Shown piece by piece: positions 16,854 through 56,300 of a DNA stretch of 64,000 bases. Location of the stretch: NCBI GenBank assembly GCA_038087875.1, contig CM075991.1, positions 3,844,001-3,908,000 on the forward strand. Reading direction: 5' to 3'. The position numbers and the translations under genes are program-made. The notes beneath the pieces are model-generated. The model was not told the origin of the DNA and made no database searches. It was given only the letters and a program-made list of their open reading frames with translations. The DNA is from Malacoraja senta. Taxonomy: Eukaryota. The number at the start of each line of letters is the position of its first letter. The first letter of the stretch is position 1.

Positions 16854-16907
16854 GGGGCGGAAGATTGCAACCTTCACGTGGCCCGCCCTGTTTCGACTAA
16901 TGCAATC
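16854..16907 (+). ncRNA. Minimal HDV-like self-cleaving ribozyme (predicted), copy 1
   Basis: P1 GGGGCGG/CCGCCCU with G1-U wobble, P2 GAUUGCA/UGCAAUC, P3 ACC/GGC, L3 UUCACGU, P1.1 G, J4/2 CUAA. Confidence 0.75.
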
Positions 16908-16994
16908 AACTCGACGTGCACAAACGGAAGATCAAATAGAACAAGTTGTCCAACAACTTTAGGCTGTGCACGCCACACGAAAGAAGAAGAAGAA
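16854..16994 (+). mobile_element. Short ribozyme-headed retroposon (SINE-like), copy 1
   Basis: (GAA)n tail; TSD gagtctatctttgg (16842-16855 / 16995-17008); homologous to 50504-50648. Confidence 0.85.
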
Positions 16995-17224
16995 GAGTCT
17001 ATCTTTGGCATAAACCAACATTTGCAGTTCTTTGTTTCTGCTGTCAAGCTTGATGGGGGCCAGCAGAGTCTGAAGAAAGGTGAAATATCACCTATCCATG
17101 TTCTGCAGAGATGCTGCCTGGCCCACTGTGTTACTCCAGCACTTTATGTCAAGCAAAGAGCCTAGTATCTATGATGTCAAGCTTGCTATAGGATCTTTGC
17201 TTTATGTCCTTTTGCTGGAAGCCA

Positions 17225-37087: not shown

Positions 37088-38348
37088 CCCTGTGCGATTC
37101 CGTATACATTTCAAGATCCTCCTCTATGTCTACAAAGCCCTCAATGGGCTTGCCCCCACCTACATTAAAAGTCTTCTCACCCACCACTCCACCTCCAGGT
37201 CCCTCAGATCGGCCGACTTGGGGTTGCTGAATATCCCATGTCTAGGCATAAGCTCAGGGGCGACCGCGCCTTTGCGGTTGCAGCTCCTAGACTGTGGAAC
37301 AGTATCCCCCTTCCCATCAGAACTGCCCCCTCCATCGACTCCTTTAAGTCAAGACTAAAAATGTATCTATACTCCCAAGCCTTTCTTGACGTCCTCTGAG
37401 CGAGGGCTATATGTATATATGTGTGTAGTTTAAGAAGGAAGTGCAGATGCTGGAAAATCGAAGGTACACAAAAATGCTGGAGAAACTCAGCGGGTGCAGC
37501 AGCATCTATGGAGCGAAGGAAATAGGCAACGTTTCGGGACGAAACCCTTCCGGGTTTCGGCCCGAAACGTTGCCTATTTCCTTCAGGGTTTCGTCCCGAA
37601 ACGTTGCCTATTTCCTTCAGGGTTTCGGCCCGAAACGTTGCCTATTTCCTTCCGGGTTTCGTCCCGAAACGTTGCCTATTTCCTTCAGGGTTTCGGCCCG
37701 AAACGTTGCCTATTTCCTTCAGGGTTTCGTCCCGAAACGTTGCCTATTTCCTTCCGGGTTTCGGCCCGAAACGTTGCCTATTTCCTTCCGGGTTTCGGCC
37801 TGAAACGTTGCCTATTTCCTTCAGGGTTTCGGCCCGAAACGTTGCCTATTTCCTTCCGGGTTTCGGCCCGAAACGTTGCCTATTTCCTTCCGGGTTTCGT
37901 CCCGAAACGTTGCCTATTTCCTTCAGGGTTTCGGCCTGAAACGTTGCCTATTTCCTTCCGGGTTTCGGCCTGAAACGTTGCCTATTTCCTTCCGGGTTTC
38001 GGCCCGAAACGTTGCCTATTTCCTTCCGGGTTTCGTCCCGAAACGTTGCCTATTTCCTTCAGGGTTTCGGCCTGAAACGTTGCCTATTTCCTTCAGGGTT
38101 TCGTCCCGAAACGTTGCCTATTTCCTTCAGGGTTTCGTCCCGAAACGTTGCCTATTTCCTTGGCTCCATAGATGCTGCTGCACCCGCTGAGTTCCTCCAG
38201 CATTTTTGTGTACCTCCTATGTATGTAGTTTGTTTGTTTGTTTATATTATTCTTATAACAAATGTAAAGCACTTTGGCCAACGAGAGTTGTTTTTTTAAA
38301 TGTGCTATATAGATAAATGTGACTTGACTTGACAAGACTTGACTTGAC
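37088..38348 (+). mobile_element. L2-clade LINE 3' end, interrupted by a fold-back element and minisatellite
   Basis: LPVRFRIHFKILLYVYKALNGLAPTY...; 3'UTR resumes at ~38220 with gtaaagcactttg and a (gactt)n tail. Confidence 0.8.
37552..38162. repeat. Minisatellite, ~18 x 34 bp (gggtttcgKccYgaaacgttgcctatttccttcM)
   Basis: Head-to-tail units without spacers inside a fold-back element (37430-38215). Confidence 0.95.
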
Positions 38349-50300: not shown

Positions 50301-53300
50301 CACATGCCGAGGTAATTTCAGGCAAACAGGAAGGTATGTATTCTGTGCTCACTGTAAAATTAAATCAGTCATCACTCACTTGAGAAGTGTATTTTGCGAT
50401 TATTGTATATAGATATTAACGAGTGACTGTAATATTGATGCGCAGTTTGATGTATGTTAAGTGCACTGTCACTATCATGACAGTCATTGAGTTAGAGGTT
50501 GGGGGGGTGGAAGATTGCAACCATTACGTGGTCCGCCCTGTTTAGACTAATGCAATCAACCTGGCGTGCACAATCAAATAAGATCAAATAGAACAAGTTG
50601 TCCTACAACTTTAGGCTGTGCATGCCATACGCAAGAAGAAGAAGAAGAAGAGGTTGGGCAGCACTTCAACAAGGAAAAACTGTTTACATGCAAATACAAC
50701 ATGTTTAAATATTCTTCACAAAACATAGAACAGTACAGCACAGGCCAACAATGTGCCGAATCTGATGTCGTCAAACTGATCTCATCTGCCTGTAAAGATC
50801 CATATCCCTCTATTCCCTGCACTTTCGTGTGCCTATCTAAAAGCCTCTTGAACGCCAGCATTGTATCTGCCTCTGCCACCATCCTTGGAAATGCTTTCCA
50901 GGCCCTCACTACTCACTGTGTGTGTGTGTGTGTGTGTGTGGGGAGGGGGTGGGGGTGGGGGTAAATGTCCTGCACATCTCCATTAATCTTTCCCCCTCTC
51001 ACCTTAAAACTATGCCCTCCAGTGTCGGACATTTCCACCCTCGGAAAGTTTCTGGCTATATACCATATATACGTATGCCTCATAATTTTATATCCTTCTA
51101 TCAAGGTTACCCTCAACCTCCAATGTTCCAGAGATAACAATCCAAGTCTATTCAACCTCTCCCTGCAGTTGAAATTCTTTAATCCAGGCAGCATTTTGGT
51201 AAACCTCCTCTACTGTCTCGAAAGGCTCCATCTTTCCTGTGATGTCATGACCAGAACTACATGCAATACTCGAAATATGGCCGAACCTACAGTTGCATCA
51301 TGAATTTCTAACTCTTATACTCAGTGCCCCTAGCAATGAATGCATACGCCTTCTTTACCACCCTAGCGACGTGCTGCCACCTTCCGTGAGCTGCGAAACG
51401 CAATAGCAAATACGACTTGTTCTCATCTCCAATTTTCTTTTGATCCTAAATAATTAATATTCAACACTTTTGCATGTGTGTGTTTTTGAAATGTTTTATG
51501 AATTGTTTTAGGTGTATATGCCTGGATTGGAATTAACTTTGTCCTGGGAAGATTTAACCACATCAGTGCAGGTAAAGATTCATCTATACATTTGGAGGGT
51601 GGGACTAAACATCTATTGGGTGTATTTTGCAACATGTTATTTATAGCTAATTTTATACTAAGATGAAGATGTATTTAATATAATCGTCTGCCAGTCCTTA
51701 AGATAAATACATTTATCACATTAGAATGGCACAGTTAGTGGAGCTGCCATATTATAGCTTGTGACTTGGGTCAATTCCTGATGTGCTGGTTGGTAAACTA
51801 ACTGGTAACTCTAAATTGTACCTAGAATGGGTGAGTTGTAGAATCTAGAGAAGTTTGAGAATGTGGGAGAATTTAAAAGAAGAGTCTAGAGCAAATATTA
51901 TCAGTGTGGGCTTAGTGGGTGGAAGTTCATGTGTCCTTGCGGTGATTCTGAATATTTGGCATGTTCTGTTCAAAGAATTTAAGTTTTCACCATTGCTTCA
52001 GCCTCATCAGTTTTGTTTTACAATCTGGATTAATTTATATATATATATATATATATATATTTGAAGCATGGTTTCGGGGATCCGAACCCAAAAATATTTT
52101 CCCGTTGTTTTGGCTTAGTTTGGAGATACAACGTTAAGACAGGACCTTCAGCCCACCGAGTCCATGCGAGCATTGATCACCCTTTCGCACTAGTTCTATC
52201 TTATCCCACTCTCTCCTCCACTCTCTATACAATAAGGGAATTTTGCAGAGGCATATTAACCTACAAAACCTGCACGTCTTTGGGATGTGAGAGAAAACCG
52301 AGGCATCCGAAGGAAACCCACGTGGTCAAGGGGAGAACGTGGAAATTCCACATAGACAGCAGCTGAGGTCTGGACTAAACCTGGGTCTCTAGTGCTGTGA
52401 GGCAGCAGCTCTACTGCTCTACCACCTCCTATTGGTTATAGGAGGAATAAAATGCAGCCTACAACTTGGGAATTGTGTACTGTGTGTAAACTTTGTTTGA
52501 TGGCTTTCAAAATGAAATGGGCATCTAACTACTTGTCCTTTTCTGATTTCATGCAGGTGAAGATTCTGTGGTGGAAGTCAATGTTCCTGGCACTGAAACC
52601 CAGGCGGCCGTTGTCCGCAAGAGGACAACTGGTGTACTGGACATGGGTGGGGTTTCCACTCAGATAGCCTATGAAGTCCCCAAAACTGTAAGCTTTGCCT
52701 CTTCACAACAGGTTATTATCTGTCCAACCTTCTTTTATTTTGCAATTTTCCTTTTAGTCTGTGTTCCCTAACATTTTGATCATTTACTTGCTTGCGTTCA
52801 ATCCCTTGCCCGTTGGTTACTGCAGTTCTTACTAACACCCAAATGCATGCTCTGAAATCTAATGGTCATTATTTTATTGGTCTTGTATATTGTGTACTCT
52901 CATTTAATTGAAATGTCCATTTTATTTTTAAATCAACCTTGTGAATTAAACTAGATGTGGTACTAATTCGAAATCACCTTTGTAACAAATGTCCTGCACA
53001 TATGTTCAACTTAGTTTTTCAGTTGGAGCTTAGACTAGTTCTGAGAGGAGTGGAGGCAGAACTAGCAGGCTTTGGACATGGGGAGGAAGGATGGGGCTGA
53101 CTGGGTAAATATATTTAAGAAGAAATGCAGGGGGAAGTGGTTGAAAGAGTTTAATGTCACTAGGATGAACATAAATCTCAAAGTGAGGATTTTAAAATCA
53201 GTTTCTATAGGGTCCTTGGAGCTTAGAGTGCTTGGAAATTGTTGGAATTATTGGAGTGCAGAAATTAATAAGAAATGCAGATGCTTGAAATCTAAAATAA

Positions 53301-56300
53301 AATAAAATGCTAGAAATACTCTGCAGGTCATGTCACACGTGGGAAAAGAAGTAGAATGAGTGTTTCAGGCTGAAGTCCTTTCATGAAAACACTATGGTTC
53401 ACACGCTTTCAAGCTTCTGCATCTTATGCCCGATGGGGATGAGAAGAGAGAATGACTGGGCTGTGGTTCTCCATTATGTTGCCTGCTTCTCCGAGGCACA
53501 TGGATTGTAGATGGAGTTGTTTGTAGTGGTGGGGAGACATTTTTGCTTGTTACACTGGCCAGCGTTTATATCGCTTTGATCTTGGGCAGAATAGTTGCCA
53601 TGCCAAGCTGAGATGCTTGTGGCTTGTACGGCACCTCTGTTGAAATTGGTGGGAAGCATAGGAGACAGTATGGACAGTAAATGGAGAATGGACATAAAAA
53701 TGGTTTAAACTGTGGGTTCAGCCAAGACACTGAATTTTTGGAGTGGACTGAAAGTCCTCCCCTGCTACTTATGTGAGCAGCCTCAGTGAATTTATATTTT
53801 GTTTCTTGTGGGAAGCTTCCTTGGGGTTTGATTATTTGCATGGAATCGTGCGAAAATTCACTTTTCCTGCTCCTAACCGTGAGAAGAAAAATATGATCTT
53901 TCCTGTTGGCATGTTGAAACCTCAAAGTGTTTTTTTCTTTTTGACCCATACTTTTTCACTTAATTCCATCTTTGTCTTTTTTTTACTCCTAATTTGACTA
54001 ATTTCCATCCTTCCCTGCCACTTTTTGCCAGTCCTCGAATCTCTTTGGTTGTTGAGGTACCCAGTTTGTGCCATCTCACATAAGGTCACAATGGTCTTTC
54101 ACCCGCTCCCTGCCATTATCATCTTGTGGTCTAACAAAGTCAGTTGTCTTGTGCTGCTGAATGCAGTGAGTCACCATTTAACTCTTGTGCATTCATTTCC
54201 ATTTCACCTCAGACAAATTTCTCCTCACTGCTCTGTTGAATTGCCGCTGTACTCATTCAATGCTGTCTGTTAATTATGCTTAGTGGTTGCATTCTGAAAG
54301 GTTTGAATATGAAATAAAGTTGACAACTTATGTGTGATTGCCCACCCTTTGAGCAGGAGGAGGTGGCCAAGAACCTGCTGGCAGAGTTCAACCTGGGCTG
54401 TGATGCCCATCACACGGACCATGTATATCGAGTCTACGTCACCACGTTTCTGGGTTTCGGCGGGAATGCTGCCAGAAAGCGATACGAGGAACAGATTGTC
54501 TACAAGACCACGCTGACAAACAGGTACTTGGACCATCTGAGAAGAGGTTCTCGCAAGTGAGCTGGGTTAAAACGTTATTATTTGGCCCAGCTGATGAATT
54601 TCAATGGTTTGCTCCATTTGTTCCGCTTCCCACCCTACGGCACCTTGTCCTTTTTAAAGAGATAAGGTATTGTATCAAAATCTACAAATTGGATGACTTC
54701 AATTTGTCAGCCACAGCACAAATAGCAGCAAAGATCACTGAGGCACTGGGGATCACTGGGGGAGTCCAGAACCAGGGCCCACAGTTTAAGAATAAGGAGT
54801 AAGCCATTTAGAACCGAGACGAGGAAACACTTTTTCTCACAGAGAGTGGTGAGTCTGTGGAATTCTCTGCCTCAGAGGGCGGTGGAGGCAGGTTCTCTGG
54901 ATGCTTTCAAGAGAGAGCTAGATAGGGCTCTTAAAAATAGCAGAGTCAGGGGATATGGGGAGAAGGCAGGAACGGGGTACTGGTTGGGGATGATCAGCCA
55001 TGATCACATTGAATGGCTGGCTCGAAGGGCCGAATGACCTACTCCTGCACCTATTGTCTATTGTCTATTGGCTCTTCAAATTACTTCTCATGTGCTAAGA
55101 ATTCTAATAACGTTCAGTCTTATTTTGTCTGGCACTTGATGATCAAGTGTTAAAACCAAAACAAATGTTCATTGAACTGCTCAACCTTGGAGGGGAAAAG
55201 GCAACCATGCACAACAACTGGGGTTGTACCACTGGCCTGACATTAGATGTTATGCCATGGTCAAGACCCAAGGAATCTTGTATGATAACAAATCTAATAT
55301 GATTGCTCCTTGTTCAGGACCTGGGAGAAAATGTTGGTGAATGGCCAAGGTGGAAGAGTTAGTGGTGGGGTGGAAGGCATTATGTGGATGACACAGAAAG
55401 GACCAGGGGATAGTTGATTGGGGGGGGGGGGAGTGAAGTTTAGAACATCAGTGGGCGAGAGATGGGGTTTCCTGAGAGCCATAGGGGAAGAATAAGGGCA
55501 ACTGATACTGGGGCAAGTTCCAATTCAGCAGTGTTTAAAGTGTGTGCCATTTGCCAGCCCTGTGCATTCTACACTATTTGCTAACAATTGTAAATTGTCC
55601 CTAGAATTTAGGATAGAACTAGTGTACTGGTGATCGCTGGTCAGCATGAACATGGGGCGGTCAAAGGGCCTGTTTCAACTCTATCCTCAAACTAACCACT
55701 GGAAATGCGTAGCAGCCTCTACGTACAGCAGCATCATGTAGCAGGGTAGACAAAAGTGCTGGAGAAACTCAGCGGGTACAGCAGCATCTATGGAGCGAAG
55801 GAAATAGGCAACGTTTCGGGCCGAAACGTTGCCTATTTCCTTCGCTCCATAGATGCTGCTGCACCCGCTGAGTTTCTCTAGCACTTTTGTCTACCTTCGA
55901 TTTTCCAGCATCTGCAGTTCCTTCTTAAACATCATGTAGCAGGGTTCCAGAACTGGTGCTCTGAGAACAAAAAATGTGGATAGGCCCATTATGGCGAATT
56001 TATTTGACTAGAACGACATAGTAAATGTCGCAACTTCAGGAGCGGAGAAATGAAATTCAAACATTATAAACAAGAAAAGAAAAAAAAAAACACTTCCTTC
56101 ATTTCTTGCACAGGTTACTGGGGCAGAAGACGGGCACATCTGAGGAAATCCCATACTTGGACCCTTGTTTGCCGGTCGACATCAAGGATGAAATTCATCA
56201 GGATGGGCAAACTGTGTACTTGCGTGGACTGGGAGACTTTGATTGGTGTCGGGAAGTGATTTTCCCCTTGTTAAACAAGACTAATGAGACTTCGACGTCC

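Follow-up and report, generated by a model that had tools for sequence, protein, structure and literature searches.

The focal copy and its insertion site

The window, the whole stretch of 64,000 nt of Malacoraja senta contig CM075991.1 that was analysed, contains ENTPD4, whose coding exons all lie on the + strand from 45353 to about 62677. The exon checked is 100% identical to skate ENTPD4 proteins; ENTPD7 was considered as the host gene and ruled out by the named homologues, which are ENTPD4. One intron holds a 145-nt retroposon, the focal copy, whose first base (G1) lies 170 nt past the donor and 1,008 nt ahead of the next exon. Element and coding exons are all on the + strand, confirming the sense orientation asserted in an earlier, sequence-only reading of this DNA. 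The features are as follows.

50334-51511, + strand: ENTPD4 intron carrying the focal copy (1,178 nt; GT at 50334, AG at 51510-51511)
50494-50503, + strand: left TSD AGAGGTTGGG, 10 bp (sequence inspection; empty site in a related organism)
50504-50648, + strand: retroposon element, 145 nt, ending in a (GAA)n tail
50504-50557, + strand: predicted P4-less HDV/CPEB3-type ribozyme head (helix parse, covariation)
50558-50584, + strand: rest of the LINE 5' UTR segment, one arm of a stem of about 10 bp with the 3' end
50585-50597, + strand: junction filler, a short local duplication linking the two ends of the LINE (approximate limits; LINE ends compared with copies)
50598-50634, + strand: LINE 3' end, with the final codons and stop of the ORF and a short 3' UTR (LINE 3'-end comparison)
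50635-50648, + strand: (GAA)n tail (sequence inspection)
50649-50658, + strand: right TSD, duplicate of the left 10 bp
16854-16996, + strand: second window copy, 88% identical to the focal copy and of another subfamily

The 10-bp TSD running to 50503, followed by the element from G1 at 50504, can be seen directly in the sequence, as can the slight ambiguity that the earlier reading attributed to a run of G's. The last three G's of the left TSD abut the G-run of the element, and its first three bases may alternatively be tail. Formally, the start can be placed anywhere in 50501-50504 (a 7-9-bp TSD plus extra G's), never within P1, and the 10-bp reading agrees with the modal TSD of the family (10-13 bp). 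In one contig of a related organism (X3), 50503 is joined directly to the sequence past the right TSD; this empty site has three G's and a single target copy. The match in a second contig (X7 record 25) also ends at 50503. The focal copy is a lineage-restricted, decayed insertion, ordinary in itself.

The second window copy lies 28 kb upstream of the first ENTPD4 coding exon. Its L3 is intact and its P3 has an A-C mismatch; the maximal TSD of 14 bp overlaps G1-G2, giving a start that is G1-compatible and not uniquely fixed. Elsewhere in the window, a 34-bp tandem array (37410-38287) and a near-perfect palindrome (55762-55878), both from an abundant repeat family, yield spurious miRNA matches.

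Family size and 5' boundary

The 3' part of the element supplied a 27-nt pattern with 3,529 exact matches in the genome against none for the reversed control, so the family is not a product of chance. The figure is a lower bound on copy number. The 5' boundary was read in the first 100 listed matches, chosen on the 3' pattern alone, from which four duplicated loci were dropped (n=96). TSDs of 7-18 bp, mostly 10-13 bp, flank 83 of these 96 copies. Among the TSD-bearing copies, 65/83 start at G1 exactly (41) or compatibly with it through G microhomology (24); the other 18 comprise 12 with extra 5' bases, four that start at +2 and two that are truncated. Eight of the 13 copies with no TSD call are full length by alignment. 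An earlier DNA search for copies, made with the 3' part only, gave the same boundary picture.

The sequence-only reading had argued from the two window copies that a shared start at G1 speaks against random 5' truncation. Two copies alone are weak evidence, because copying of so short a template (145 nt) usually runs to completion; the shared boundary now extends across the family, and the starts of other copies are mostly not scattered away from G1. The weight of the boundary claim comes from its match to the predicted G1 and from covariation across element families. In 4/4 sequencing runs from four organisms (86, 228, 223 and 217 contigs), the best-supported rows of a listing that leaves out 1,367 others include loose contig ends before 50504, so family and boundary extend beyond the M. 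senta genome.

TSDs start with a purine in 75/83 copies. Target preferences ahead of the TSD include T at -2 (50/83), a pyrimidine at -1 and T 12 nt upstream (46/83), and the last TSD base is T in 24 of the 41 unambiguous copies. At L061-L073, about 11/14 matches are mini-copies whose 5' truncation falls at the base of the 3' hairpin, a place that the search pattern itself favours.

The parent LINE

The element is non-autonomous and bipartite: it consists of about the first 80 and the last 45 nt of a 3.1-kb LINE, putatively of Vingi type, from the same genome. Its 5' part is 88-93% identical to the LINE copies L143, L150 and L153 across about 70-82 nt, and its last 38-46 nt are matched in 19 of the 22 LINE loci fetched. 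L143 (3.1 kb) and L150 (2.8 kb) are near full length with the same head at the start, while L153 is a longer internal-deletion copy of the LINE that starts at G1. A first search pattern gave only truncated or indel-bearing mini-copies; the LINE was found with a shorter one that keeps the last 17 nt and excludes the mini-element upstream, and has 614 first-look candidates in the genome. At the LINE 3' ends the ORF closes with a Cys/His motif, which we take to be Vingi-like, and the stop codon falls inside the 3' part of the mini-element.

Pfam identifies APE and RT in the LINE. RNase H was not matched at E<=0.1 in six proteins (five LINE ORF pieces and P0001) and is not listed for the best 120 homologues. 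P0001 is an intact 1019-aa ORF that is 72% identical to the LINE, other homologues being 35-50% identical, and is a candidate for a close relative or a horizontal transfer. Most homologues are single ORFs of about 1,000 aa on 3.1-3.7-kb contigs, and none of the listed ones is a named Vingi protein; among the LINE copies read there is no intact ORF, all being broken. The Vingi-type assignment is provisional and follows architecture (a compact single ORF with APE and RT and without an RNase H match) rather than a tree with named Vingi references. Vingi LINEs as described in the available text of PMC5786205 and PMC13708176 are also about 3.1 kb long, with a single APE and RT ORF, without RNase H and with bipartite non-autonomous derivatives. 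The accessible part of PMC5786205 lists six clades with a 5' ribozyme, and Vingi is not among them.

Two other origins were rejected. Thirty DUF6451-bearing loci of the RTE family abundant in this genome have a different 3' end and share only the (AAG)n tail, which excludes RTE as the parent. A tRNA-, 7SL- or 5S-headed SINE is excluded by a head that is LINE-derived, with no tRNA and no Rfam 7SL or 5S match at the element.

L113, L120 and L122 (and L153) are other, independent internal-deletion derivatives of the LINE with different junctions. The LINE copies L139, L145 and L151 carry their ribozyme-bearing 5' piece in the opposite orientation to the ORF, an arrangement like that of twin-priming inversions. 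In the mini-element, a stem of about 10 bp (50561-50571/50615-50625) joins linker and 3' end, and the commonest subfamily carries one change that perfects this stem relative to the LINE.

Predicted fold of the head

The head is likely an HDV-like self-cutting RNA with its cut site 5' of G1. Its parts in the focal copy, taken from the helix parse unless stated otherwise, are listed below.

50504-50510/50533-50539, + strand: P1, 7 bp, with a G1-U pair
50513-50519/50551-50557, + strand: P2, 7 bp
50520-50522/50530-50532, + strand: P3, 3 bp, ACC/GGU
50523-50529, + strand: L3, 7 nt
50523-50525, + strand: near-private L3 changes U20A and C22U (majority comparison, fold prediction)
50540-50541, + strand: J1.1 (in the family, P1.1 is 1 bp)
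50542-50546, + strand: 5-nt stub replacing P4
50547-50550, + strand: J4/2 (C-N-A-A), predicted catalytic C at 50547

The nested double pseudoknot of P1, P2, P3 and P1.1 is present; the focal copy keeps P1-P3, and its P1.1 becomes U-G. The family majority has the catalytic C in J4/2, the U20-G25 wobble and the G1-U pair. HDV ribozymes place no constraint on the base that follows the catalytic C. For counts over heads, six more copies that were 5'-truncated or unalignable were dropped from the boundary sample (n=90). The catalytic C is conserved in 87/90 heads; all tested pairs and core bases are intact in 42/90, G1 being unscored in this count, and 48/90 have some break. Common variants of non-CpG type fall at the fold-neutral sites 8, 32 and 45. 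Deletions of at least 3 nt occur at head positions 11-53 in 10/90 copies, against two in the linker (the same deletions running on), possibly through RT skipping across the pseudoknot.

Covariation was assessed in eight related rows from four element families. The 11 pairs of P1, P3 and P1.1 are 94% paired in these eight heads against 41-50% when slid, and 5 of the 11 are compensatory, with both sides changed. The number of pairs changed on both sides is no better than in shuffles (313/500), and the other four of the five shuffle measures were exceeded. A 7-bp P2 of differing sequence occurs in 7/7 heads parsed. P1, P2 and P3 covary across the four element families. Single-sequence folding of the head, with a program that cannot fold pseudoknots, is unexceptional (z -1.5 to +0.3). 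This family (window, L009, L150 and L153) has no match to the Rfam CPEB3_ribozyme model RF00622 at its threshold of 35 bits, and the Rfam scan of the window gives no HDV-family ribozyme match at the focal head.

Compared with the mammalian CPEB3 ribozyme (RF00622), the family majority has the same spacing, L3 (UUCACGU), 1-bp P1.1 and C-N-A-A junction; the focal family differs in the sequence of P1-P3 and stays below the RF00622 threshold. Among minimal and theta HDV-like ribozymes, the minimal ones also do without P4, as does the skate head. In the available text of PMC10879173 the minimal ribozymes are reported from metagenomes and phages, and not from the few eukaryotic genomes searched there.

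A probable ribozyme as the source of the G1 start

The best explanation, and in our judgement a probable one, is that the focal copy is a two-ended derivative of a Vingi-type LINE, that its start at G1 reflects a P4-less HDV-like fold likely cutting the RNA from host transcripts, and that neutral decay has probably inactivated its core since insertion. Source copies would be transcribed within host or read-through transcripts, and the head would self-cleave 5' of G1 to leave a 5'-OH RNA; cleavage is argued by analogy with R2 SIDEs and L1Tc/NARTc as described in the consulted parts of PMC3414825, PMC3383444, PMC4035085 and PMC6765202. The LINE protein would bind the shared 3' end and prime reverse transcription in the (GAA)n tail, a priming site suggested by the purine bias at TSD starts. 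Second-strand joining may often proceed via G microhomology, seen in 24 of the 65 G1-compatible copies.

Ribozyme-headed, internally deleted retroposons of R2 and L1Tc/Ingi are already known. The R2 SIDEs of Drosophila, in the text available from PMC3414825, are likewise short and internally deleted, join a 5' HDV-like ribozyme to the 3' end of the parent and spread by TPRT. They belong to an RLE clade, target 28S rDNA and are rare, whereas the skate family is APE-type and dispersed, with at least 3,529 copies and a 54-nt P4-less head. NARTc, RIME and SIDER of the trypanosomatid L1Tc/Ingi group represent a sister clade in which the head is common to the LINE and its short derivatives and copies decay (PMC4035085 and PMC3383444, in part). 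The L1Tc/Ingi ribozyme is described in the same excerpts as cutting 5' of element +1, the skate counterpart of which is the predicted cut 5' of G1.

Alternatively, an internal promoter could set the G1 start, either alone or jointly with a ribozyme as in L1Tc Pr77; the P4-less fold would then serve mainly to bind protein or to protect the 5' end. Pr77 of the sister Ingi clade is indeed both promoter and ribozyme, according to the part of PMC3383444 consulted; in addition, P4 of the skate head is cut down to 5 nt, and a short template would give uniform 5' ends regardless of cause. We nevertheless consider this reading unlikely. Four families with differing helices all keep the catalytic C, L3 and the G1-U geometry, the element head is not tRNA-like, and P4-less HDV ribozymes are active elsewhere (PMC10879173, available text). 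Pr77 as described in the excerpts differs from the skate head: it is 77 nt long, has P4 and is a proven promoter, whereas the skate head is 54 nt long, comes from a vertebrate element whose parent has no RNase H match, and has predicted cleavage.

Changes and probable decay of the focal head

The P3 pairing (ACC/GGU) and the altered L3 (AUUACGU in place of the majority UUCACGU) had both been correctly noted in the focal copy. Relative to the family majority it has U20A, C22U, a C to A change in the stub (mini-loop) and J4/2 CUAA, the last being the LINE (parental) state, though unusual in the subfamily of the focal copy. The catalytic C and the G1-U pair are kept, but position 20 is A. In the predicted fold U20A lets A20 pair with U26, which extends P3 and removes the U20-G25 wobble. 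L3 would thus be closed by A20-U26 with loss of the metal-positioning wobble, and C22U would weaken P1.1. The wobble positions the catalytic Mg2+ in CPEB3 and HDV (PMC4836649, in the section available), and short paired regions are highly mutation-sensitive (PMC9901934, likewise in part). Because U20A removes this wobble and such short helices tolerate change poorly, the ribozyme core of the focal copy is probably inactive.

U20A occurs in 51 copies on varied subfamily backgrounds, with the AUU loop in 2 of the 51. This recurrence on mixed backgrounds identifies it as a recurrent mutation, not a lineage, and rules it out as a subfamily mark.

The sequence-only reading had proposed that decay of L3 is what makes the copy tolerable in its intron. 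In its general form, sense-intronic copies would persist only with a disabled ribozyme, and the focal L3 changes would have been selected or the copy filtered for them; we find this improbable. The changes of the focal copy are concentrated in its head, with four private-looking changes in 53 head sites against none in the remaining 78 (p about 0.03, post hoc), and fast intronic ribozymes reduce splicing (Fong 2009, cited in the accessible text of PMC10919898). Both other assigned sense-intronic copies have a core change (L163, G1U; L236, G25A), but 2/3 antisense genic copies are broken as well. The L3 changes are near-private, comparable decay (three or more head substitutions) is found in 13/90 copies, and some break affects more than half of all heads, as given above.

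The orientation tests gave either a null result or too few copies. A strand-skew proxy, unvalidated and of low power, gave no orientation bias: of 64 loci of 10 kb (95 loci in total), 21 were sense-like and 16 antisense-like. Broken heads were not in excess at sense-like loci by the same weak proxy (intact/broken 13/9 against 10/12 at antisense-like loci, p = 0.55). Searching the sequence around 96 copies for exons gave five host-gene matches (two sense, three antisense) and one RT, too few to speak to bias. The search covered 280 of 315 candidates, with nested duplicates dropped, and of about 11 known ENTPD4 exons its filter caught only 4. The proposed check on orientation bias and core decay of intronic copies gave a null proxy and five assigned genic copies, and tolerance through L3 decay is not supported. 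Neutral decay after insertion is probably the simpler reading of the focal L3 changes.

Even with its core intact, the head might have little effect in this intron, the next exon being only about 1 kb away. The available text of PMC10919898 gives a half-life of 2-3 min for mouse CPEB3 and Pol II speeds of 3.5-4.1 kb/min, both mammalian values, and describes slow intronic ribozymes as leaving splicing undisturbed. Pol II moving at this speed would need about 15-17 s to arrive at the next exon, compared with the 2-3-min half-life. The copies that adjoin exons (L157, L163, L230, L236 and L245) lie beside Derlin, topoisomerase I, 7tm_1 (weak), DUF676 and 2Fe-2S thioredoxin-like domains.

Sister heads and the CPEB3 ribozyme

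A sister-head pattern that excludes the P3 of the focal family gave 53 matches against 3 in the control. It turned up a second mini-retroposon family, a second Vingi-like LINE and a third head. In the second LINE (L289, L291, L302, L314, L315 and L316 at about 1499, oriented) a full-P4 5' head is followed by an APE/RT ORF, which is 30-37% identical to P0001. Eight of the ten sister-family loci scanned pass the RF00622 threshold, in a range of 35-61 bits with LINE heads at 47-61. The best sister LINE head shares 33 of its first 40 positions with the Rfam CPEB3 consensus and has compensatory changes in P1. The scores of the LINE heads suggest a retrotransposon origin of the CPEB3 ribozyme.

One crocodilian element, Vingi-2_Gav, has its 5' end reproduced in the supplement of PMC5786205, where it is not called a ribozyme in the part available. 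Compared by eye, this end contains the mouse Cpeb3 ribozyme primer printed in the accessible text of PMC10919898, with one difference. Vingi traces are reported in the human genome (PMC5753468, available part). We lean slightly towards the view that Vingi elements carry HDV-like heads, including active P4-less 54-nt ones in thousands of vertebrate copies, and that the mammalian intronic CPEB3 ribozyme is a domesticated Vingi 5' end. A literature search, with patents and Repbase notes outside its scope, returned no statement of a Vingi ribozyme or of CPEB3 descending from Vingi, though earlier coverage may exist. Transposons are not mentioned in the available text of PMC8233481, which was searched by term.

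The interest of these observations rests on the family and the CPEB3 connection, not on the focal copy. They would add a vertebrate, Vingi-type element with a head close to minimal size to the known cases of this design. Thousands of natural head variants form a ready mutational series and a population test of intron tolerance to self-cleaving RNA, and the sister heads suggest where the CPEB3 ribozyme may have come from, in a form concrete enough to test. Vingi-1 serves as a gene-writing platform (PMC13708176, as far as its text was available), and a cleaving 5' UTR would matter to the design of its templates.

The second mini-retroposon family (L287, L292-L297, L300, L301, L305-L307 and L309-L313) is about 175 nt long, with a GAA tail and another P4-less head. 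Its position 1 is mostly T, often TSD-compatible too, which would mean either U1-U pairing or a P1 in a shifted register.
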